From NCBI GenBank assembly GCA_045658565.1, contig JAZOVF010000031.1:64222-128221 (forward strand): DNA of 64,000 nucleotides. Reading direction: 5' to 3'. The stretch is from Eubacteriales bacterium. Its GTDB lineage: Bacteria; Bacillota; Clostridia; Oscillospirales; CAG-272. The position numbers and the translations under genes were made by a program. The notes below the pieces were generated by a model. That model did no database searches and had not been told where the DNA came from. It saw only the letters and a list, made by a program, of their open reading frames with translations. Below, in pieces: positions 3,152 through 54,768 of this stretch. Numbering within the stretch: the stretch's first letter is position 1; each line of letters opens with the position of its first letter.

Positions 3152-4597
3152 ATGCCATTTATAATTGCAGGCAGTCTGGTTGCACTCTTGCTTTTGATCT
3201 TGATTTTGGTGCTTGTCATAAGAACGCTTCTCTTTGTTCCTAAAAAGACCGAGCGAGAAAAGGTTGCCCCGATTTTTGTAAATAGTGAAAAGGCTATAGC
3301 CGACCTTGGCGAAATGATAAAGTGCAAGACGGTATCTGATACCGATAAATCCAATGAGGACGAGTCGGAGTTTGAAAAATTCGAGGCTCTTTTGCCAAAG
3401 CTTTTTCCTAACGTGTATGAAAAATGCGTGTTTGAGAAACCCTCTGACAGATCCCTCTTGTTTAAATGGGAGGGCATAGCTCATGATGCTCCCACGGTTT
3501 TGATGTCACACTATGATGTTGTCAGCGTTGTAGAAGAGGATTGGGAAAAGCCGCCCTTTGATGCCGAACAGGAAAACGGTGTTCTCTGGGGCAGAGGAAC
3601 TCTTGATACAAAAGGCACCTTAAACGGTGTTCTTCAGGCAGCAGAAATACTCATAAGCGAGGGCTTTGTTCCCCAGAATGACATATACTTTGCCTTTGGC
3701 GGTGATGAAGAAATAAACGGCTACGGTGCAAAAACCATAGTAGACCTGTTTGAAAAACGCGGAATAACCCCCGGTCTTGTAGTCGACGAGGGCGGAGCTG
3801 TTGTTGAGAATGTGTTCCCTGGAGTAACATCGCCCTGTGCTCTAATCGGAATTGCCGAAAAGGGTATGGTTAATATCGAGTATTCTGTAAAGGGCGGTGG
3901 CGGCCATGCCTCATCTCCTGCGGTTCATACTCCTGTTGGCAGACTCTCTGCAGCTTGTGTTAAGGTGGAAAACAGTCCGTTCAAGTTTGGTATATCCAAA
4001 CCGGCAAAAGCAATGTTTGACTCGTTGGGAAGAAACTCAACCTTTGTATATCGCTTAATTTTTGCAAATCTTTGGCTCTTTAAGCCTGTTCTTAATATAC
4101 TGACTAAAAAGACAGGCGGTGAGCTTAATGCTCTTGTGCGTACAACAACAGCCTTCACCCAAATGGATGGCTCAAAGGGAATGAATGTTATTCCCCCTTA
4201 TGCAAGAATGGTTTCTAACCACCGTATTAAGGAAGGCGAGACTCCGGAAAGCGTTGCAGAGCGTATAACAAAGATAATTGATGACGAAAAAATAAATGTT
4301 CGTATAATCTCGGGTATGCCACCCTCAAGAATCTCGGATACAGACTGCGAGGCATGGGAACGCGTTAAGCTGACAGTAGGTGAAACCTGGCAGGATGCTA
4401 TAGTGTCTCCATATCTTATGCTTGCATGCTCTGACTCCCGCCATTGGGGCAGAATATCCGACAAGGTGTATAGATTCTCGGCTATGGCTCTTTCAAAAGA
4501 TGAGCGCGGCACAATTCACGGAAATAACGAGAAGATTCCCTTTGCAACCATAACAAAAACCGTTGAATTCTATATCCGACTGATGAAAAAATCTTAA
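3152..4597 (+). CDS. M20-family metallopeptidase (membrane-anchored)
   Basis: 481-aa ORF with an N-terminal hydrophobic anchor and M20-type motifs SHYDVV, WGRGTLDTKG, GGDEE and VDEGG. Confidence 0.8.
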   Translation: MPFIIAGSLVALLLLILILVLVIRTLLFVPKKTEREKVAPIFVNSEKAIADLGEMIKCKTVSDTDKSNEDESEFEKFEALLPKLFPNVYEKCVFEKPSDRSLLFKWEGIAHDAPTVLMSHYDVVSVVEEDWEKPPFDAEQENGVLWGRGTLDTKGTLNGVLQAAEILISEGFVPQNDIYFAFGGDEEINGYGAKTIVDLFEKRGITPGLVVDEGGAVVENVFPGVTSPCALIGIAEKGMVNIEYSVKGGGGHASSPAVHTPVGRLSAACVKVENSPFKFGISKPAKAMFDSLGRNSTFVYRLIFANLWLFKPVLNILTKKTGGELNALVRTTTAFTQMDGSKGMNVIPPYARMVSNHRIKEGETPESVAERITKIIDDEKINVRIISGMPPSRISDTDCEAWERVKLTVGETWQDAIVSPYLMLACSDSRHWGRISDKVYRFSAMALSKDERGTIHGNNEKIPFATITKTVEFYIRLMKKS

Positions 4598-4606
4598 AAT
4601 ATTAAA

Positions 4607-4640
4607 GCTGCCTTAAGCACTTGCTTGAGGCAGCCTTTTT
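4607..4640 (+). terminator. rho-independent terminator
   Basis: Hairpin gctgccttaag / cttgaggcagc (11-bp stem, 1 mismatch) followed by CTTTTT, directly after the peptidase stop. Confidence 0.6.
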
Positions 4641-4641
4641 G

Positions 4642-5130
4642 TTATGTATTAAGAAAGTAAATTGCAATATTTAAGTAACCTGCAAATATAACCCAAAGAG
4701 CATAAGGAATCTGCAAATATGCAGCGATAGGCGATATTCGCCTGTATTCTATAATTGTCTTGATTATAAAGTATAAAAGCAAAACAAGCCACAAAAAGCT
4801 GAGCAGAAATGCATTTGCGTTAAAGAAAATAATGCTCCAAGCAAAGTTTATAACCAGACTTATGGCATAGGTGGTGAGAGCCGAGCGAACTTCTGCAGTG
4901 TCGGTTATGCGTTTGCTATAAATCATAGCCGAGCTGATACCCATGAGTGTATAGAGCACAGTCCATACAATAGGGAACACCAAAGCAGGCGGAGCTATAT
5001 TAGGTACAATCAGCTCCTCGTATATATTCATGTTGTCCTTTGTAAAAAATGTTGATAAAAGCCCAACACCGATAGGAATTGCTATAGCTATAATGTATAT
5101 TCTGATATAAGGTTTAATCTTTTCCCACAT
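4642..5130 (-). CDS. tspO: TspO/MBR family tryptophan-rich sensory protein
   Basis: 162-aa 5-TM ORF with a Trp/Tyr-rich pattern (PIVWTVLYTLMGISS, FAWSIIFF, YALWVIFAGYLN) typical of TspO. Confidence 0.8.
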   Translation of the reverse strand: MWEKIKPYIRIYIIAIAIPIGVGLLSTFFTKDNMNIYEELIVPNIAPPALVFPIVWTVLYTLMGISSAMIYSKRITDTAEVRSALTTYAISLVINFAWSIIFFNANAFLLSFLWLVLLLYFIIKTIIEYRRISPIAAYLQIPYALWVIFAGYLNIAIYFLNT

Positions 5131-5240
5131 TTTTGTTACCTCCGAAAAGTTCCTTTGTAAAATTTATGTGCCTTTTTCGGTGGATATTACAAAAATTCAA
5201 AAAAACAAACCAATGATAAAAATTAAAAACGGAAATGATA

Positions 5241-5270
5241 AAAAAAGAAGCAGAATTTCTTCTGCTTCTT
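5241..5270 (-). terminator. rho-independent terminator downstream of tRNA-Leu
   Basis: Perfect 10-bp hairpin agaagcagaa/ttctgcttct, flanked by an A-run on one side and a T-run on the other, so it could work in both directions. Confidence 0.65.
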
Positions 5271-5274
5271 TTTT

Positions 5275-5358
5275 TGGTGCGGGAAACGGGACTTGAACCC
5301 GTACATCAAAGATACACGCCCCTCAAACGTGCGCGTCTGCCGATTCCGCCACTCCCGC
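5275..5358 (-). tRNA. tRNA-Leu (anticodon GAG)
   Basis: Manual fold of the reverse complement GCGGGAG...CCCGCACCA: 7-bp acceptor stem, anticodon stem cacgt/gcgtg, loop TTGAGGG, long variable arm, T-arm ACGGG-TTCAAGT-CCCGT, A73, encoded CCA. Confidence 0.85.
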
Positions 5359-5476
5359 GAACATTTGATATTATACACTAAAACTTTTCATTTGTCAATA
5401 GGTTTTTGATAAAAAAATCTAATTTTTTTAAAATTAAATAAAATGAATAAAAAAACAACGCATTTTGCAAAAATGA

Positions 5477-5505
5477 TTGACAAATATGTGAAATTCCTTT
5501 ATAAT
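5477..5505 (+). promoter_or_regulatory. consensus promoter TTGACA-17nt-TATAAT for the PqqD cassette
   Basis: Exact -35 box (5477-5482) and -10 box (5500-5505) with a 17-nt spacer, about 40 nt upstream of the GGAGGG SD and ATG5548. Confidence 0.7.
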
Positions 5506-5547
5506 TAGTGTGTATATTTTCGCGCGAAATAATATTATGGAGGGCTT

Positions 5548-6288
5548 ATGACGAGTTTTAATATTAAGCTTGCGGATAAAAATATTTTCATAGAATGTTT
5601 ATATGAATCCACAAAGACTTTTTGCAAAGATTATATTGTGGATGATATTGCCGCAGATATTACCGTCGGTATAACCCCTGCGGATATACAGTATGAACGT
5701 GAGAAATCGGATAAAGAACGTGAGATAGAAGGACTGCCGCCCTTTGCCCCCTCTCCTGCATATCTTGAAACCCTTGCCCTTTATCGTAAGATTGCCGATG
5801 CGATGATAGATTTTGATATAATTCTTTTCCACGGCTCGGCTATCTCTATGGACGGAGAGGCGTATATATTTACCGCTAAGAGCGGAACAGGAAAGTCTAC
5901 CCACACACGTTTGTGGCGAGAAGTCTTTGGCGACAGAGTTGTTATGATAAATGATGACAAGCCGCTTATAAAGATTACAGACTCGGGTGCTATAGTTTAC
6001 GGCACACCCTGGTGCGGAAAGCATAACCTTGGCTCAAATATATCAGCACCTCTTTATGCGATTGTTTCTCTTGAGCGTTCTAAGGTTAACAGGGTAGAGG
6101 AAAGCGATTCAAGAAAAAGCTTCCCTAAGATTTTAAGCCAGACTTACAGAACAAAAAATATTCTCGGGCTTCAAAAGACGCTTGCGCTTACGGACAAGAT
6201 GTTAAAGAGTGTTAAGATTTTTGAGCTTGGTTGTAATATGGACTCCGAGGCGGCAACGGTCGCATATAACGGAATGAAAGGTAAATAA
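5548..6288 (+). CDS. HPr-kinase-like P-loop protein (putative peptide/protein Ser kinase)
   Basis: 246-aa ORF with Walker A TAKSGTGKSTHT followed by ...DDKPLI...GTPWCGKH. It resembles the HprK C-terminal catalytic domain and lasso-peptide kinases. This is recognition only. Confidence 0.55.
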   Translation: MTSFNIKLADKNIFIECLYESTKTFCKDYIVDDIAADITVGITPADIQYEREKSDKEREIEGLPPFAPSPAYLETLALYRKIADAMIDFDIILFHGSAISMDGEAYIFTAKSGTGKSTHTRLWREVFGDRVVMINDDKPLIKITDSGAIVYGTPWCGKHNLGSNISAPLYAIVSLERSKVNRVEESDSRKSFPKILSQTYRTKNILGLQKTLALTDKMLKSVKIFELGCNMDSEAATVAYNGMKGK

Positions 6289-14863: not shown

Positions 14864-14940
14864 TGGCCTACCTGCGCGGATTCGAACCGCGGACCTTCAG
14901 AGTCGGAGTCTGACGCGCTATCCAGCTGTGCCCCAGGTAG
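14864..14940 (-). tRNA. tRNA-Arg (anticodon CCG), slightly atypical
   Basis: Manual cloverleaf of 77 nt: acceptor CTACCTG/CAGGTAG, D-loop AGCTGGATA, anticodon stem TCAGA/TCTGA with loop CTCCGAC, T-arm CGCGG-TTCGAAT-CCGCG, G73-CCA. The atypical features are C1:G72, G8 and one D-stem mismatch. Confidence 0.65.
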
Positions 14941-15077
14941 GTATTAACTTTTTGAGCATGGTTACGGTAAACCTTCAGAGTTTGCCGCTCGGGGGAATAT
15001 AGGAGAAAATTGCGTTGTGAAAATCTACTGCATTGCAGCATCTCCTCGCTTGGCAATATTCCGCCGAGGGCGGAATG

Positions 15078-15170
15078 CGGAGTCTGACGCGCTATGTTAG
15101 CTGTGCCACAGGTAGGTATTAACTTTTTGAGCATGGTTACGGTAAACCTTCAGAGTTTGCCGCTCGGGGA
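15078..15170 (-). repeat. second copy of the tRNA-Arg 5' half (to the anticodon loop) plus its ~55-bp upstream region
   Basis: ~92 bp nearly identical to 14904-14995. Differences are confined to the D-loop and position 8. Identity stops exactly after CTCCG of the anticodon loop and is followed by the hairpin attccgcc-ctc-ggcggaat. Confidence 0.85.
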
Positions 15171-27481: not shown

Positions 27482-28438
27482 ATGTTTTTAAGAAAACATC
27501 TTGAAAAAATATATCGGGGAACTTTGTTTTCCCGCCACGATATAGACGGCAGTATTTTCTATTTTTCAGAGGAAGATTTTCCCGGTCTCAGAAAAACCGA
27601 ATATAACTTTAAAAATAGAAAAGGCGAAACACTTAGCGGCTGGTTCTTTAGCTACGACGGTGCAAACACCGAGAGGATAATAGTATTTGACCACGGACTT
27701 TCTGTTGGCCACAGGTCATACTTCAGAGAGGTTGAAACCCTTGCCGCCGCAGGCTATACTGTTTACACCTTTGACCACACAGGATGTACCTATTCCGAGG
27801 GGGAGGGAATTGGCGGCTTTGTTACCTCGCTTTCCGACCTTGACAGTTGCATAAAAGCGTTGAAGTCCCATTATCCCGAAAAGAAAATTGCCGTGGTAGG
27901 CCATAGCAGAGGCGCTTATTCCACTCTTAATATACCTGCCTACCACCCCGACCTTACACATATTGTAGCTATCTCGGGCTTCTCATCGGTAAAGGACATG
28001 ATTGACCAGCTGATACCATCATTAGCGAGTAAAATCAGAGCACATATCCACTCTGTTGAAGAAGCGGAAGCTCCCGAGTATGTCAACGCAGCTGCTGTTG
28101 ATACTCTAAAAAATACGAGTGTAAAAGCCCTTGTTATTCACTCGGCAGACGATAGGACAGTCAGCGTAAAGCAATATGAAAAACTTAACTCTGCCTTAAA
28201 AGATGTGCCGAATATTTCGTTTTTGTTGGTTGACAGAAAGGTGCATAACCCACACTATACCGCTGATGCTGTGAAGTATAAGGATGCATTTTTCAAGACC
28301 TATAAGAAAATGAAGAAAAAGAAAAAGCTCCTTACAGACGAGCAAAGAGCGACTTTTATTAAGCAGTACGATTGGCACCGCATGACCGCCCAAGACGATA
28401 CCATCTGGGCAGAAATTTTTAAATTTCTTGATTCTTAA
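27482..28438 (+). CDS. alpha/beta-fold hydrolase
   Basis: 318-aa ORF with the nucleophile elbow VGHSRGA, an FDHG oxyanion region and a Lys-rich C-terminal segment. Confidence 0.7.
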   Translation: MFLRKHLEKIYRGTLFSRHDIDGSIFYFSEEDFPGLRKTEYNFKNRKGETLSGWFFSYDGANTERIIVFDHGLSVGHRSYFREVETLAAAGYTVYTFDHTGCTYSEGEGIGGFVTSLSDLDSCIKALKSHYPEKKIAVVGHSRGAYSTLNIPAYHPDLTHIVAISGFSSVKDMIDQLIPSLASKIRAHIHSVEEAEAPEYVNAAAVDTLKNTSVKALVIHSADDRTVSVKQYEKLNSALKDVPNISFLLVDRKVHNPHYTADAVKYKDAFFKTYKKMKKKKKLLTDEQRATFIKQYDWHRMTAQDDTIWAEIFKFLDS

Positions 28439-28543
28439 GCCTTCCCCGGTGGAGCAAAGCGAAACGTGCCTTAGAAGGTGGCACGGCTATGCCGTGACGG
28501 ATGAGGTTGTGGAAGCTGTCACGAAGTGACTGATGAGGTGTAG
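28437..28543 (+). repeat. two tandem hairpin + GATGAGGTG-box elements (U1, U2)
   Basis: U1 is ...gaaggtgg-CACGGCtatGCCGTG-acGGATGAGGTt and U2 is gaagct-GTCACgaaGTGAC-tGATGAGGTGtag. U1 starts at the stop codon of the hydrolase gene. Confidence 0.8.
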
Positions 28544-28610
28544 AATTATTGAATTTGCCTTTTCATAAAGGCAAATATATTGAACGTCTATTACGTATAT
28601 CGAAAAAATA

Positions 28611-28737
28611 CGGACAGTCGAGGACGCCTGTCCCTACAAATTGCACTTGCAAATTTCTCCTAGACTATGTATTTACTAACATAATCATCTGAAGATTGTA
28701 TGCACTGATTGTAGGGGCAGGCGTCCTCGACTGTCCG
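28611..28737. repeat. REP/REPIN-like inverted doublet
   Basis: 29-nt arms cggacagtcgaggacgcctgtccctacaa and ttgtaggggcaggcgtcctcgactgtccg (1 mismatch) separated by 69 nt. Each arm is itself GTAG plus a palindrome (ggacag...ctgtcc). Confidence 0.75.
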
Positions 28738-28780
28738 CTTTTATGATACTGTAATATTACCTCTGTTATAAAACACCACG

Positions 28781-28812
28781 AAAAAAGGAGCGAATTTTCG
28801 CTCCTTTTCGTT
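28781..28812. terminator. bidirectional rho-independent terminator
   Basis: aaaaaaGGAGCGAatttTCGCTCCttttcgttt: a 7-bp GC-rich stem with A6 upstream and T-runs downstream. It probably ends the minus-strand aminotransferase operon. Confidence 0.65.
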
Positions 28813-28813
28813 T

Positions 28814-28943
28814 AAGCCTTCACCTGTGGGTAGCGAAGCGGCACGAGGGTGTAAAAAAAGCGTTAATAACGGTTTTTCCCCGAGTGTGACCGAGCCGCAG
28901 CGAGACAAGGTGGCACGGCTATGCCGTGACGGATGAGGTGTAA
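28814..28943 (+). repeat. degenerate unit U3 plus unit U4 of the GATGAGGTG-box family
   Basis: U4 (28907-28943) contains a 33-nt exact copy of the U1 core aaggtggcacggctatgccgtgacggatgaggt and ends GTGTAA, 1 nt before the convergent aminotransferase stop. Confidence 0.8.
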
Positions 28944-28944
28944 A

Positions 28945-30219
28945 TTACTTAGAATGCTTAGCGATAACAACCTTGATTGCTTCGATAACCTTTTCGATGT
29001 GCTCCTTTTCCCACGAGGGGTGGAGGAAGAGGGAAACTGTCTGATCACGGAGGCTTCTTGCAACAGGGCAAACAACCTTAGAGTAATCAACAGTCTTGGG
29101 GTCGGTGTACTCCTTAGACTTGAATGGGAACTGAGCATCGCCGAAGCCTACGCCGTCCTGATAAGCCTGCTCGAGATAGCTCTCGGGCCAGAGAATACCG
29201 GAGCAGGGAATGCCCATGCCGATAAGCTCCTTAATAAACTCCTTAGCGGTGATGTCAACAACATCAAGGTCAAGAAGAATGGGGTACCACCAGTATGCGT
29301 TCTTACGCTCTGCGGTATTTACAGGAACAGCCTTTATTCCCTTAAGGCCTGTGAGTGCCTTGTCGTACATTGCAGCATACTCAAAGCGGCGAGTAAGGTT
29401 CCAAGAATCGAATCTATTAAGCTCGCAAAGACCGATCATAGACTGCATCTCAGTCATACGGTAGTTGAAGCCGACTCTTCTGTGTATGTAGGGGAGCTTC
29501 TCCTCAAGAGCAAGCATATTCATTCTGGTACGAACATCGTAGCCGTGGTCACGGAAGGAACGGCACTCCCAAGCCAGATCCTCGTTGTTAGTGATAACCA
29601 TACCGCCCTCACCGCCGGTGGTAAAGTGCTTAGACTGGCAGAAGGAGTAGCATCCAACGTCACCGATAAGACCAACCATAGTGTCCTTATACTTACCGCC
29701 GATACACTGCGCGCAGTCCTCAACTACAAATAGGTTATGCTTCTTTGCAATCTCCATAATGGGGCCCATGTCAGCAACAACACCGTAAAGGTGAACAACT
29801 ACGATAGCCTTTGTCTTAGGAGTAATAAGAGCCTCGATGCACTTAGGGTCAAGGGTGTGGTCCTCGGTAACATCACCGAATACGGGAACTGCACCTGCCT
29901 GAACAACAGAGAAGGAGGAAGCAATAAAGGTGTAGGAGGGAACGATAACCTCATCACCCGGGCCTACGCCAAGAGCAGAAAGAGCGATGTGAAGCGCTGC
30001 AGTACCGTTAGTGCAGGAGATAGCATAGTCGCATCCTGCCCACTTTGCAAAAGCTTCTTCAAACTCCATACCAATCTTACCGGTCCAGTAGTTAACCTTA
30101 CCGGAATTAAGAACCTCGGTAACCTTCTCGGGAACCTCGGGTGCAAATTGAGGCCAACCGGGGAAGCCAATTTCTTCAACACCGGAGCCATTCATTACAA
30201 GATCTTCTTTTTTTGCCAT
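28945..30219 (-). CDS. DegT/DnrJ/EryC1/StrS-family PLP-dependent aminotransferase
   Basis: 424-aa ORF with the family motif SFCQSKHFTTGGEGG (PLP lysine) and a GDEVIVPSYTF segment. The size resembles scyllo-inosose/sugar aminotransferases. Confidence 0.85.
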   Translation of the reverse strand: MAKKEDLVMNGSGVEEIGFPGWPQFAPEVPEKVTEVLNSGKVNYWTGKIGMEFEEAFAKWAGCDYAISCTNGTAALHIALSALGVGPGDEVIVPSYTFIASSFSVVQAGAVPVFGDVTEDHTLDPKCIEALITPKTKAIVVVHLYGVVADMGPIMEIAKKHNLFVVEDCAQCIGGKYKDTMVGLIGDVGCYSFCQSKHFTTGGEGGMVITNNEDLAWECRSFRDHGYDVRTRMNMLALEEKLPYIHRRVGFNYRMTEMQSMIGLCELNRFDSWNLTRRFEYAAMYDKALTGLKGIKAVPVNTAERKNAYWWYPILLDLDVVDITAKEFIKELIGMGIPCSGILWPESYLEQAYQDGVGFGDAQFPFKSKEYTDPKTVDYSKVVCPVARSLRDQTVSLFLHPSWEKEHIEKVIEAIKVVIAKHSK

Positions 30220-30272
30220 GATTTTATGCCTTTCAATTATATAATTTTCAACTTTAAATTTAAAAATTCCGA

Positions 30273-31583
30273 TTACTTGCCTGCCTGCATCTCTGCAACA
30301 GCCTCAAGTACAGCATCAGCCATATACTCAAGCTGTTCAGCAGAAAGTCCGTAAAGAGGAAGATGAGTAAATCTCTTATAGAATACCTCTTCGCAGTTGG
30401 GACAGGTCTTTGCAATCTCGTCAGAATCATAGCCCATATCCTGAACTATCTTGAAGCGATAGAGAGGACCGAAGTGAGCAATCTGGGTAACACCCTTTGC
30501 TTCGAGCTTCTTCTTAAGCACCTGAATGTCGCCGCCTGCCTTTGCGGGGTCGATCTGGAGCAGGTACATGTGGTATGTGGGCTTGATGTCCTCGGTGTCA
30601 AGGAGCTGAGGAATGATAGCGTCATTCTCTGCAAATCTCTTGGTGAGATATTCTGCTGCCTCGCGTCTTATCTTTATAATCTCCTCGTTTCTTGCAACCT
30701 GGAGAGCAAGACCGAGACCCTGAATTTCGGTTGTAGAGGAGTTGCCGGGTACAAAAGGCTTTTCCTTGCCGGGAATGGGAGTGATATTGTAGAGCCAGTC
30801 CTTAATAGGGCAGGAGAAGTCGAGACCCAAGAAGCGTGCTCTCTTCATGTGAGGTGTGTAGCCGGGGATAGAGGTGCAGAGAATACCACCCTCACCAAAG
30901 GATGTGATATTCTTAACCTCGTGCATGGAGTATGCACCGAAATCACCGATAGTACCAATCATCTTTCCCTTATACATTGCGCCGAATGCGTGAGCCGCGT
31001 CCTCAAGAACTACAATGTTGTTCTTTTTAGCAAGCTCTAAGATAGGGTCAAGGTCAACAGGATAACCGCCGATATGTACGGGAACTATCATCTTTGTCTT
31101 GGGAGTAATCTTTCTTGCAACGTCTGCGGGGTCCATATTTATTGTTCTGGGGTCAACGTCAGCAAATACAAGCTTGCATCCGATAGCAAGGGGGTAAGCC
31201 ATTGTTGCTACGAATGTGATAGCGGGAACGATAACCTCGTCGCCCTCCTTAAGGTTTGCATACTTGTAAGCAATCTCAAAGCCTGCGGTAGCGTTGGTAA
31301 CGAATGTAGCAGACTCGGTCTTAAGGTACTCGTTGCAGGCAGCCTCAGCAGCCTCAACCTTAGAGCCGAGAGAGAGCTTTCCGGGAGGTGTAGCAAGAGC
31401 GTCAAGCTTCTTAACCTGCTTCCACACAGCCTCAAGAGCATCCTCGTATTCCTTGCCTTCGCCCTGCATAAGGAACTTGATAATCTCCATAAGGTCGTGA
31501 ACATTGTAGTTCTCGCCAACTGCTGCCCACGGCACCCTTGTGGCACCTGTGTTGTACCTGAAGTCAGATGTTTGTTTTCCCAT
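30273..31583 (-). CDS. DegT/DnrJ/EryC1/StrS-family PLP-dependent aminotransferase (second, divergent)
   Basis: 436-aa ORF with GDEVIVPAITF, LEDAAHAFGA and SMHEVKNITSFGEGG. Confidence 0.8.
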   Translation of the reverse strand: MGKQTSDFRYNTGATRVPWAAVGENYNVHDLMEIIKFLMQGEGKEYEDALEAVWKQVKKLDALATPPGKLSLGSKVEAAEAACNEYLKTESATFVTNATAGFEIAYKYANLKEGDEVIVPAITFVATMAYPLAIGCKLVFADVDPRTINMDPADVARKITPKTKMIVPVHIGGYPVDLDPILELAKKNNIVVLEDAAHAFGAMYKGKMIGTIGDFGAYSMHEVKNITSFGEGGILCTSIPGYTPHMKRARFLGLDFSCPIKDWLYNITPIPGKEKPFVPGNSSTTEIQGLGLALQVARNEEIIKIRREAAEYLTKRFAENDAIIPQLLDTEDIKPTYHMYLLQIDPAKAGGDIQVLKKKLEAKGVTQIAHFGPLYRFKIVQDMGYDSDEIAKTCPNCEEVFYKRFTHLPLYGLSAEQLEYMADAVLEAVAEMQAGK

Positions 31584-31648
31584 AATTTTCTCCTTTTAAT
31601 ATATTATGTTTTATATTATGCTTTAATAAATTTGTGAGGTGTAAGAGC

Positions 31649-32281
31649 TTAAAATTCCGGCTCGTACTTCTGGACAAACTCTTCCCAAACGATCTTCCTT
31701 ACCTCAATATCTTTAATCTTCAATCTAGTGCAGTAAGCCGAGAAGCCAAGATGTCCGCCCTTGATAGGCGTAGGATCGATAAGCTCGGTAATAAGAACAT
31801 CGTCAACCACCATAAATGTGTGACCCCCAATAGCTCCGCAGGTCATGCGTACCTCGCTGCCCGGTACGTAAATGTAGTTAGAGGTCGTAGAGTAGAGGTT
31901 TGTGCCAAAGCCTTCGCCGAAGTTTCTTTCAATTCCGCATTTGTGCTCGTACCAGCCGTTAAGACCGCAAACGTAGGACTCACCGAGATAATCGTGAGTG
32001 TTGTTCCAGTTAGCGCAGAATACCGCGTTAACGTCGCGCGTTGCGGGCAGAACTGTACCGATAGTGAACGAGAACATAACGTCATCCTCAAATCTCTCAC
32101 GAGTCATAAGGATTCCGCCAAAGTTTCCTCTCTCCTCACCAACAAGGTAGCCGTCCTTGACGCACCATTTTCCTGTCATTATTTCCCAGTATTTTTCCCA
32201 ATCTGAGTCGGGGGAGTAACTGAAAACAACAGGGGATTTGTCGGATAAAATCTTTTTGCCAAGTAAAAGTATGTCTTTCAT
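31649..32281 (-). CDS. DUF1961/DUF1080-like concanavalin-type (LamG-fold) protein
   Basis: 210-aa ORF with an AAGGAG SD. The C-terminal GGHLGFSAYCTRLKIKDIEVRKI resembles the last strands of DUF1080/DUF1961 jelly-roll proteins. Confidence 0.5.
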   Translation of the reverse strand: MKDILLLGKKILSDKSPVVFSYSPDSDWEKYWEIMTGKWCVKDGYLVGEERGNFGGILMTRERFEDDVMFSFTIGTVLPATRDVNAVFCANWNNTHDYLGESYVCGLNGWYEHKCGIERNFGEGFGTNLYSTTSNYIYVPGSEVRMTCGAIGGHTFMVVDDVLITELIDPTPIKGGHLGFSAYCTRLKIKDIEVRKIVWEEFVQKYEPEF

Positions 32282-32295
32282 TTTTCTCCTTTTTT

Positions 32296-32396
32296 AGCCT
32301 TCCCTTAAGCCTTCCCCTTGGGGAAGGGGGACCGCTTGCGGTGGATGAGGTAGTGATATGCTTGCTGCGCAAGCGGTCTTGACGAATGAGGTGTAA
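32296..32396 (+). repeat. units U5 and U6 of the GATGAGGTG-box family
   Basis: U5 is CCTTCCCCttGGGGAAGGggg-ACCGCttgGCGGT-GGATGAGGTagtg and U6 is GCTTGCtgcGCAAGC-ggtcttgacGAATGAGGTGtaa. Both lie between the operon's start codon and the AT-rich upstream region. Confidence 0.8.
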
Positions 32397-32661
32397 AATG
32401 TATAAATCGTTCCTATGTGAATCGTTTTATCCTTTTTACAGTAATCCCAAATATCGAAAATCTTTTTGTTTTTTGTATGTAAATATGCAATTTAACATAT
32501 TAAAACATATAGATTATAGCAAATATGTATATAAAATTAAATGATAAATCAATAAGGAAATATGAAAAATCGATAAAAAACAATCCAAAATCTTTGTAAA
32601 AATTTTGGATTTTACATTGTGTACAAAAAATCTCCTACATTACTGTTAGTGTTGAACAAAA

Positions 32662-32712
32662 AAGCCTTCCCCTTGGGGAAGGGGGACCAGCTCTGCTGGT
32701 GGATGAGGTGGA
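32662..32712 (+). repeat. unit U7 of the GATGAGGTG-box family
   Basis: aagCCTTCCCCttGGGGAAGGggg-ACCAGCtctGCTGGT-GGATGAGGTGgac. The flanks are the same as U5 but the second stem has a different sequence. Confidence 0.8.
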
Positions 32713-32873
32713 CTTTGGCAAGGGCGAATAGAATTAACCAACTAACTCTATACTCTACACTTTCCCCGCTTGCCAAAGCCTGAATCTGCAGACGGTTCGG
32801 AAAAGGAGATTCCTCGACTTCCGCTCTGCGTCTCTGTTTTCCACTTTCTGCCGCTCGGAATGACACATTTCTG

Positions 32874-32907
32874 CAAAACAAAAAAGCGGAGAATATTTCA
32901 TCTCCGC
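32874..32907 (-). terminator. rho-independent terminator of the lon...rluB operon
   Basis: On the minus strand: GCGGAGAtgaaatatTCTCCGC followed by TTTTTTGTTTT. Confidence 0.7.
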
Positions 32908-32926
32908 AAAATATGCATACCCCACT

Positions 32927-32977
32927 GTGGAAGGTGGGCATTCGGTCTTACGTCCCGAAAGCCCGGATGAGGTGTAA
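32927..32977 (+). repeat. unit U8 of the GATGAGGTG-box family
   Basis: gtggaaggtGGGCaTTCGGtcttacgtcCCGAAaGCCC-GGATGAGGTGtaa, ending 5 nt before the convergent stop codon at 32982. Confidence 0.75.
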
Positions 32978-32981
32978 CGAA

Positions 32982-42414: not shown

Positions 42415-42462
42415 GCGACCTTGTGTAAAGGGAGCTGTCGCAGAATGCGACTGAGGGATTGC
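42415..42462 (+). repeat. unit U9 (variant B: ...TTGTGTAAAGGGAG-hairpin-CTGAGGGATTGC)
   Basis: ggcgaccttgtgtaaagggagct-GTCGCagaatGCGAC-tgagggattgc, starting directly after the ruvC TAG stop. Confidence 0.7.
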
Positions 42463-54720: not shown

Positions 54721-54768
54721 AGGCTTCCCCTCGGAGGGGAAGCTCTGCGAAGCGGCGATGAGATTTCG
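54721..54768 (+). repeat. unit U10 of the hairpin + GATGAG-box family
   Basis: aggCTTCCCCTCggGAGGGGAAGctCTGCgaaGCGGc-GATGAGATTTCG, starting 11 nt after the ABC gene stop. Confidence 0.7.

Follow-up and report, generated by a model that had tools for sequence, protein, structure and literature searches.

Our analysis showed that a 64,000-nucleotide stretch of DNA from a Eubacteriales bacterium (assembly GCA_045658565.1, contig JAZOVF010000031.1, positions 64,222 to 128,221; hereafter the window, meaning the whole stretch) contains orphan, partly decayed members of a cross-phylum family of intergenic repeats that resemble the BoxC/PIT/TMECO intrastrand-triplex repeats of Escherichia coli and other Proteobacteria (Bergler, 1992; Hoyne et al., 2000; Holder et al., 2015, PMC4666352). 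The repeats are polymorphic between relatives and mark a variable island, and in other genomes they are physically coupled to genes of the DUF559 nuclease family, in a layout like that of REP repeats around a RAYT gene. The explanation that we favour, and consider reasonably probable, is that they are REP/BIME-like mobile DNA repeats, orphaned in the window, with DUF559 as their probable cognate enzyme; the enzymatic role of DUF559 on the repeats is the part of this explanation that we infer. A full repeat, or module, consists of a pyrimidine arm, a loop and a purine arm (together hairpin 1), the dinucleotide TG, a second hairpin (HP2) and a purine box that mirrors the purine arm.

Repeat units in the window

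The first-pass annotation of this DNA had listed eleven intergenic units (U1 to U11), each made of variable hairpins and a conserved purine-rich box similar to a Shine-Dalgarno (SD) sequence. The sequences of all eleven were confirmed at their positions, and eight (U7, U5, U1, U10, U11, U4, U2 and U8) were recovered at E<0.01 by R1, a covariance model built from 20 unrelated copies that all come from other genomes. U6 and U3 were weak, and U9, a variant missed by R1, resembles the B2-type copies in loci L028 and L068 (L-numbers are labels of comparison loci from other genomes). Scanning the whole window with R1 gave no further credible copy beyond the listed units. The motif GATGAGGT occurs 11 times in the window against 1.36 expected, a count matched by none of 100 shuffles, and TGAGGTGTAA occurs four times against 0.05 expected, which exposes a twelfth, box-only remnant. 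The proposal that the units form a genuine family is thus borne out by motif enrichment and by the matches to a model built from other genomes.

The idea that we are dealing with chance or composition-driven hairpins next to ordinary SD sequences, and with no family at all, could draw on the weakness of U3 and U6 and on the variant-B box GAGGGATTGC, which on its own has two exact matches in the window and is not enriched there. It is already refuted by a motif enrichment of 8- to 80-fold over shuffles, by covariance-model E-values down to 1e-12, by the recurrence of an exact 26-base pattern at at least 120 loci (see below) and by the finding of zero generic motifs in shuffled loci. Variant B is itself a real subtype, because the B1/B2 architecture is seen again in other genomes. 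The annotation had also been unable to match the repeat to an Rfam family, and we obtained the same result: searches at gathering and at permissive thresholds returned no family over the elements (the best score over one of them was whalefall-1, with 14.6 bits against a gathering score of 37), and in the window only four tRNAs reach the gathering score.

All window copies are intergenic and lie among ordinary housekeeping genes. Folded as single-stranded DNA, they give two hairpins with the box unpaired, at z-scores of -1.6 to -3.3. The copies are as follows.

28437..28510, plus strand: U1, type A1; R1 32.4 bits, E=2e-10 at 28468-28507; DNA fold z=-3.0
28511..28543, plus strand: U2, type A2, truncated; R1 14.7 bits, E=0.0016
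28814..28853, plus strand: U3, degenerate fragment AAGCCTTCACC...; R1 only 6.8 bits, E=1.8
28880..28943, plus strand: U4, type A1, hairpin 1 not intact; R1 23.6 bits at 28894-28939
31635..31644, plus strand: box-only remnant TGAGGTGTAA, absent from the first-pass list; the relative L203 has a full A1 copy at this site
32296..32355, plus strand: U5, full type A1; R1 34.8 bits; also matched by a generic triplex-motif finder
32356..32396, plus strand: U6, hairpin GCTTGC-TGC-GCAAGC and box variant GAATGAGGTGTAA, without hairpin 1; R1 9.1 bits, E=0.24, weak
32662..32712, plus strand: U7, full type A1, the best window copy; R1 38.6 bits, E=1e-12; fold z=-2.6; generic finder match
32915..32977, plus strand: U8, type A1, truncated pyrimidine arm and long imperfect HP2; R1 13.0 bits, E=0.008
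42415..42462, plus strand: U9, type B2, decayed hairpin 1; matches the B2 copies in L028 and L068; fold z=-3.3
54721..54768, plus strand: U10, type A2, decayed box GATGAGATT; R1 31.9 bits
54965..55021, minus strand: U11, type B1; R1 25.4 bits; generic finder match

U5 illustrates the full plan, with CCTTCCCC-TT-GGGGAAGG, GGG, ACCGC-TTG-GCGGT and GGATGAGGT in order, and with part of the pyrimidine arm duplicated in front of it; among the HP2 sequences found across phyla, that of U5 is the commonest and is identical in 13 copies from other genomes among the matches listed. U1 starts within the TAA stop codon of a hydrolase gene, and its pyrimidine arm GCCTTCCCC (28439-28447) is separated by a 27-nt insertion from the purine-arm remnant AAGG, after which come HP2 (GGCACGGC-TAT-GCCGTGAC) and the box GGATGAGGT. 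U4 has the same HP2 and box as U1 and a 33-nt exact repeat in common with it, and its box ends 2 nt from the stop codon of a minus-strand DegT gene; U3 is probably the displaced pyrimidine arm of U4, a weak assignment made by reading the sequence. U2 is reduced to GGAAGC-TG, HP2 GTCAC-GAA-GTGAC and the box CTGATGAGGTG, followed by TAG, and shares HP2 and box with A2 copies in L001, L016, L027, L029 and L068. The box of U8 ends 4 nt from the stop codon of a minus-strand gene of 133 aa. U9, composed of GCGACCTTGTGTAAAGGGAGC, TG, TCGC-AGAAT-GCGA and CTGAGGGATTGC, stands between the stop codon of RuvC and the start codon of a methyltransferase gene. U11 (CCTCCTTT-GTGTA-AAGGGAGG, TG, GCTTGC-GGA-GCAAGT and CGGAGGGATTG) has a box that mirrors its purine arm at 8/8 positions and is paired tail-to-tail with U10 at a distance of 200 nt.

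The spacers around these copies have further repeats. U1 with U2 (28437-28543) and U3 with U4 (28814-28943) look like a diverged direct duplication with a 33-nt exact core; hairpin 1 is split by an insertion in both pairs, and the two pairs bracket a large inverted repeat. This repeat of about 30 bp, tacggacagtcgaggacgcctgtccctacaa / ttgtaggggcaggcgtcctcgactgtccg, lies in 28560-28810 (arms at about 28612-28640 and 28708-28738) and gives a sub-threshold match to Rfam tsr25 (36.5 bits against a gathering score of 63). Its motif CGG..GTCGAGG..CCCTACAA also occurs in L059, L092, L107 and L204 and therefore represents a second dispersed palindromic family. The short motif gtcattccgag(c) is found in the same repeat-rich spacers, at 32854-32864 of the window (minus strand) and in L044 and L204.

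Family members in other genomes

Searching species-representative genomes with an exact 26-base pattern, in which hairpin 1 and the box were fixed and the spacers free, gave at least 139 copies at at least 120 loci, many of which come from metagenome-assembled genomes. Among the matches listed, the hosts are Clostridia (Oscillospiraceae, Lachnospiraceae, Acutalibacteraceae and Christensenellales), Negativicutes (Selenomonas and Schwartzia), two Bifidobacterium isolates and one Flexilinea assembly. Identical 26-nt module cores were found in Clostridia, Negativicutes, Bifidobacterium isolates and alpha-proteobacteria, and therefore the unit itself appears to be transferred horizontally.

The proposed covariation of the second hairpin was upheld in this sample. 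The HP2 region has 111 distinct sequences among the 139 listed copies with identical flanks, nearly all of which fold as a hairpin (mean minimum free energy -7.8 kcal/mol, against -3.0 when shuffled). In a gapless 20-copy alignment made without fitting to the structure, the share of paired cells is 93%, compared to 79% after column shuffling, a value reached in 0 of 500 shuffles, and sliding the partner as a control lowers pairing to 43-55%; both-sided changes are seen in five of the seven HP2 pairs and in two hairpin-1 pairs. The HP2 loop is a C(GNA)G triloop in 50 of 117 cases, a GNRA tetraloop in seven and UNCG in none. C(GNA)G is a very stable DNA mini-hairpin motif.

Several subtypes share the plan. 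Subtype A1 reads GCCTTCCCC..GGGGAAGG-TG-HP2-C-GGATGAGGTG and A2 reads GGCTTCCCC..GGGGAAGC-TGTC-HP2-GA-CTGATGAGGTG, and subtypes B1 and B2 follow the same order with CCTCCCTT/AAGGGAGG and the box GGAGGGATTG. Among the listed copies, 66 of 111 (59%) have a partner within 150 nt, and 29 of the 34 adjacent pairs are inverted, 19 of them tail-to-tail with a spacer of about 48 nt and 10 head-to-head; mixed A1/A2 doublets occur in L008, L044, L056 and L068. REP hairpins have a conserved GTAG or CGTC tag at their foot; in the modules, GTAG follows the box directly in 11 of 172 copies and is not general. In seven loci (L011, L022, L027, L033, L059, L068 and L092) we observed a third module after A2 boxes, made of GTAG, a variable hairpin of 5-6 bp and CGTTAWT, which resembles the GTAG-tagged hairpin of REP elements.

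The box as a mirror repeat

The annotation had described the conserved box as purine-rich and SD-like. It is both, and its composition has a structural counterpart: across sequence-diverse types, the box varies in step with the purine arm of hairpin 1, of which it is the mirror image.

Purine arm GGGAGAGG, box GGAGAGGG
Purine arm GAGGGAGG, box GGAGGGAG
Purine arm AAGGGAGG, box GGAGGGAT
Purine arm GGGGAAGG, box GGATGAGG or GGAAGGGG

The relation was scored on 108 hairpins with an all-pyrimidine arm in DUF559-anchored loci, which had not been picked by their box. An 8-mer located 6-46 nt to one side was counted as a mirror box if it allowed G.G:C, A.A:T or T.A:T triads at at least 7/8 positions, with one score per physical hairpin. 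Such a box is present in 91% of the hairpins (46% at 8/8), compared to 23% of shuffled windows, and the non-A types considered separately give 91% (63% at 8/8) against 18%. In the window, U5 and U7 score 7/8, and U11 scores 8/8 by direct reading. Scored as a direct repeat of the purine arm, the box accounts for only 46%, against 91% for the mirror, and this possibility was rejected. We also rejected a ribosome-binding-site-sequestering switch, in which the 5' arm of hairpin 1 would pair with the box: this pairing is poor in type A, and the resemblance is better accounted for by the mirror relation.

RNA does not form purine-motif triplexes (PMC4666352). The design of the modules points to folding as single-stranded DNA rather than RNA, because it combines a purine-motif triplex with C(GNA)G triloops. 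When the DNA is single-stranded, the module would be expected to fold as the predicted triplex, with HP2 in the second loop.

These data bear on the function first proposed for the repeats, that of an RNA-level set of 3'-untranslated-region hairpins that stabilise or terminate the upstream mRNA or contact the ribosome through a box complementary to the 16S anti-SD. REP elements have a secondary role as mRNA stabilisers, the hairpins of the modules covary, and the box pairs with the 16S 3' end and acts as SD of DUF559 genes (see below). All four stop-adjacent copies noted by the annotation are indeed co-oriented with the gene that they follow; U4 and U8, however, abut stop codons on the opposite strand and are antisense to those genes. 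Orientation is near random elsewhere. Crude open reading frame calls were made around 178 copies among the matches listed, of which 129, from 120 other genomes, were scored as intergenic; for these 129, the neighbour on the hairpin-1 (upstream) side is co-oriented in 64 cases and opposed in 46. A co-oriented stop codon is found no more than 30 nt ahead of the copy in only 12 cases; another eight copies adjoin an opposed stop, and 14 closely precede a co-oriented start. Inverted doublets dominate, copies are present or absent between close relatives, and the loops are of the DNA type C(GNA)G rather than GNRA or UNCG; the mirror box fits a purine triplex that RNA does not form. An intrinsic terminator was rejected as a candidate, since what comes after the hairpins is the purine box and next G[GT]A-rich sequence, with no T-run (no U-tract in the transcript); separate T-run terminators stand beside the copies. 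We therefore regard an RNA-level function as highly improbable, and of the three options originally offered (co-oriented stabiliser or terminator, ribosome-interacting element, protein-recognised repeat), the last comes closest, and the first is unsupported.

Linkage to DUF559 genes

At several loci the box is followed after 3-8 nt by the ATG of a DUF559 gene (PF04480, E=4e-30, 104 bits against a cut-off of 20.6) of about 115 aa, and this upstream box serves as the SD of the gene. The 3' end of this gene enters an inverted module, whose box codes for the final ..TSS residues. Within 1.5 kb of the 178 copies, among the matches listed, DUF559 is the only recurrent neighbour family (10 loci, against four for a generic ABC transporter), and no transposase family is recurrent.

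The linkage is also seen from the side of the gene. In 80 metagenome DUF559 loci chosen by protein similarity alone, blind to the element, R1 gave 141 full-length hits, 111 of them within 300 nt of the gene. A sequence-agnostic triplex finder gave 2.81 motifs per kb near DUF559 and 0.109 per kb further off, a 26-fold difference, and a triplex-type motif adjoins the gene in 64 of the 80 loci and in none of the shuffled loci. In 106 of 110 DUF559-adjacent motifs, the second loop is 10-40 nt long and contains HP2. The published triplex search, which allows loops of 1-6 nt, would miss the modules because their second loop holds a hairpin, and this hairpin-in-loop variant is invisible to existing triplex finders.

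Adjacency of a triplex-type motif extends to seven of eight further DUF559 loci, in E. coli (ycjD), Neisseria gonorrhoeae, Shinella, Azospirillum, Deinococcus, Synechocystis and Photobacterium; the DUF559 locus of a Thermoactinomyces plasmid has no flanking motif of this type. The Shinella locus has a perfect 10-triad module with HP2 and a box, GGATGAGGGG, 2 nt before the ATG, and the U6-type box GAATGAGGTG also stands before E. coli ycjD. Among plasmid and phage carriers, no close relatives of the DUF559 clade were found (all below 60% identity). The DUF559 gene has a median dN/dS of 0.24, and each of the residues D51, E62, D64, Q67 and H68 is retained in at least 93% of the 88 intact copies, which argues that it is functional. 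By profile comparison, the closest solved structures are the N. gonorrhoeae DUF559 protein 3HRL (E=4e-21) and the catalytic domain of I-Bth0305I, 3R3P (E=7e-5).

The ycjD gene is present, in single copy, in 3378 of 5426 complete E. coli genomes; it is absent from the other 38% and is thus dispensable. In an evenly drawn sample of 60 E. coli genomes, those with a ycjD-adjacent repeat have a median of 18 BoxC-like places (12-27), compared to 8 (1-13) in those without. The supplementary table of Holder et al. places TMECO no. 9 at 167 nt from ycjD, without comment (PMC4666352).

Several of these loci have an unusual organization. In Photobacterium sp. GJ3 (L218), more than 25 triplex-type motifs in alternating orientation fill 1.6 kb (4386-5973), like a BIME cluster, and the array begins 44 nt 3' of the DUF559 gene. 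In L185 and L188 (2454-3891), the DUF559 gene is flanked on either side by a regular array of modules that alternate in orientation and recur about every 188 nt. At the E. coli locus (L213), a duplicated fragment of the ycjD 3' end (990-1035) lies between ycjD and a BoxC/TMECO copy, and a 17-bp perfect hairpin with GAATGAGGTGA is directly upstream of ycjD. A conserved promoter-like module, CCTAACTTGACAAAATCAT..TATAAT, stands just outside the DUF559 units in L001, L034 and L078, and is directed towards the downstream host gene in L001 and towards the DUF559 gene in L078.

It is conceivable that the modules are moved by some other, unlinked enzyme (RAYT, an IS200/IS605-type Y1 transposase or host recombination) and that DUF559 is a passenger in the doublet. 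The GTAG-tagged third hairpin behind some A2 boxes, as in REPs, would fit such a scenario, as would the excess of solo modules over DUF559 genes and the fact that the window has modules and no DUF559 gene; Holder et al. likewise found no mobility genes near E. coli TMECO copies (PMC4666352). Against this, it is DUF559 and no transposase family that recurs near the listed copies, and its adjacency to modules of quite different sequence across at least five phyla is difficult to square with a passenger role. Moreover, the box is integrated as the SD of the gene, and the inverted module is integrated into its C-terminus and stop codon. We consider a passenger role of DUF559 distinctly unlikely.

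Polymorphism and mobility

The window was compared with four relatives (88% amino acid identity in the neighbouring pseudouridine synthase). The U9 site is empty in two of them, where the spacer between RuvC and the methyltransferase gene measures 9 nt in one and 5 nt in the other, compared to 73 nt in the window. L201 and L203 have no U8 at the orthologous site, which in L204 is occupied by a different copy; at the U5/U6 site, one relative has a single copy of another kind and a further relative has none. Two repeat clusters bound a variable 4.5-kb island (28439..32981) with two DegT/DnrJ-type aminotransferase genes and a 210-aa 3-keto-disaccharide-hydrolase-like gene. The island is absent in L201, in which 47 nt with a plain terminator separate the hydrolase gene from the 133-aa gene, and its content differs in L203 and L204.

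DUF559 units that are 95-97% identical in DNA (dS 0.1-0.2) stand between unrelated flanks. Their left homology extends about 75 nt past the upstream module. On the right, one comparison places the edge where the downstream module ends on its outer side, and the others place it about 90 nt further out. At the 5' flank of the copies, only an A/T-A/T (W-W) preference was seen.

A second alternative is that DUF559 is a host caretaker nuclease that processes replication-stalling triplexes or hairpins, with the modules as its regulated substrates or as expression or insulation signals that spread by recombination, slippage and horizontal transfer only. Vsr-type enzymes are repair nickases, ycjD is a single-copy gene in E. 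coli, and one DUF559 allele (P0228) occupies a stable locus, with a single context in 22 contigs. Rearrangement hotspots at TM-motif loci (PMC4666352) could also be understood in this way, as could the failure to find a target-site duplication. It is less easily reconciled with the near-identical DUF559 units found, together with both flanking modules, between unrelated flanks, with the identical cores in distant groups, which imply horizontal transfer of the unit, or with the many E. coli genomes that are missing ycjD. A caretaker role is unlikely in our estimation.

Several observations nonetheless weigh against the mobile-repeat explanation that we favour. No target-site duplication or fixed element end was found, including at the U9 junction, and the homology edges of DUF559 units differ between copies, in a mosaic fashion. 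The single context of allele P0228 is more in keeping with a resident, RAYT-like gene than with an active insertion sequence. The correlation between DUF559 subclade and box type is only loose, and the E. coli contrast, at p=2e-10, ignores phylogeny and takes the ycjD status from the adjacent repeat. Within the window there is no DUF559 gene, and the copies are mostly tandem and co-oriented instead of forming inverted doublets. Lastly, the search pattern held hairpin 1 and the box fixed, so that their apparent invariance is partly a collection effect.

Model and implications

In the model that we favour, the parent unit would consist of a gene of about 115 aa for a Vsr-like PD-(D/E)xK nuclease of the DUF559 family, an upstream module whose box is its SD, and an inverted module at its 3' end. 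The DUF559 protein would recognise the folded module and nick it, and nicking would allow it to mobilise or maintain its own unit and, in trans, the solo modules, in the way proposed for RAYT and REP/REPIN. The window copies would then be non-autonomous passengers. Modules would promote local rearrangement, and their main effect may be on local genome plasticity, seen here as the island between the two clusters. The HP2 stems, perfect and yet hypervariable, could reflect recognition of structure or the correction of one arm from the other.

It is also possible, and we propose this more tentatively, that the DUF559 (YcjD-family) proteins are the missing cognate enzymes of BoxC/PIT-type repeats throughout bacteria. 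They would form a REP-RAYT-like system, or a new class of insertion sequence, based on a PD-(D/E)xK nickase that reads a folded single-stranded DNA module (triplex plus mini-hairpin) and copies, moves or homogenises such modules. If true, this activity would explain the hypervariable perfect HP2 stems as well as the instability of the loci.

BoxC/PIT repeats have been known in E. coli since the 1990s without a known origin, mover or function, and DUF559 is among the commonest uncharacterised nuclease domains. In the literature that we searched, no paper was found on the present repeat family or joining DUF559 with BoxC, and the accessible part of the supplements of Fremin & Bhatt (2021) contained nothing relevant. 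The physical link over at least five phyla gives both partners a testable function, that of a structure-specific nuclease acting with a non-B-DNA repeat. It offers a candidate new class of mobile or domesticated element and a mechanistic handle on the rearrangement hotspots at such loci. On the practical side, the repeats break metagenome assemblies and yield spurious 'hypothetical proteins' in gut Clostridia.

Another repeat in the window

Apart from these modules, the window has a 71-nt direct repeat, 99% identical between 14924-14994 and 15099-15169, the first copy of which overlaps the end of a tRNA gene (14867-14940). It may be a tRNA-end duplication, for example an integration scar.

Comparison with known systems

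Among systems with folded recognition sites, integron attC sites are similar in their single-strand recognition, conserved flanks, highly variable central stem and frequent position next to cassette stop codons. The modules differ from attC in having two hairpins and a mirror box, in lacking the R''/L''-L'/R' core (RYYYAAC/GTTRRRY) and in having no integrase nearby. The homing endonuclease I-Bth0305I (PDB 3R3P, Vsr-like 'EDxHD') and Vsr have a catalytic domain related to that of DUF559 and share the theme of a small nuclease with a selfish lifestyle; DUF559 genes, unlike these, are free-standing in intergenic repeats rather than intronic and have no extra DNA-binding domain.

Insertion sequences and their miniature inverted-repeat derivatives, particularly of the IS200/IS605 type, also bracket a gene with terminal inverted structured modules. 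Doublets without a gene, whose spacer is about 48 nt, resemble deletion derivatives, and the hairpin directly upstream of the SD and the near-identical units in unrelated contexts are reminiscent of IS200/IS605. The differences are the absence of a known transposase family, of a target-site duplication and of fixed termini, and the mosaic edges.

The closest sequence design is that of the BoxC/PIT/TMECO repeats. TMECO has the pattern CCCTCNCCC N3-6 GGGNGAGGG N3 GGGNGAGGG, with 23 copies in E. coli MG1655 that are always intergenic, without strand bias, and include five inverted pairs, each of type A plus type B; triplex formation has been demonstrated in vitro, and TM-motif loci are more rearranged between strains (PMC4666352). 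The present modules have the same order of parts (pyrimidine arm, loop, purine arm, loop and mirror purine third strand) and the same allowed triads, often with one mismatch, and are similarly strictly intergenic, unbiased in strand with respect to genes, arranged in inverted pairs, at several loci of mixed subtype, highly variable in copy number among relatives and associated with rearranged loci. They differ in consensus (CCTTCCCC/GGGGAAGG/GGATGAGG and CCTCCCTT/AAGGGAGG/GGAGGGATT, against CCCTCNCCC/GGGNGAGGG/GGGNGAGGG), in the second loop, which is TG, a free-sequence hairpin of 12-30 nt and C instead of 3 nt, and in their hosts, gut and rumen Clostridia, Negativicutes and Bifidobacterium. 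In E. coli, type A is always paired with type B; the mixed doublets seen here are of A1 with A2. The BoxC/PIT/TMECO literature that we searched names no associated enzyme and reports that none had been found.

The closest organization is that of REP/BIME/REPIN repeats with their RAYT (TnpA-REP) gene. The flanked gene is here a PD-(D/E)xK DUF559 nuclease and not a Y1/HUH transposase, the modules add a triplex-type mirror box to the hairpins, and identical module cores cross phyla, whereas REPs are typically lineage-specific. Both systems nevertheless consist of short GC-rich palindromic intergenic repeats, with the inverted doublet as the main unit and mosaic clusters of two subtypes in alternating orientation, and in both, one small nuclease gene, often in single copy, lies between inverted copies of a repeat that is itself numerous.

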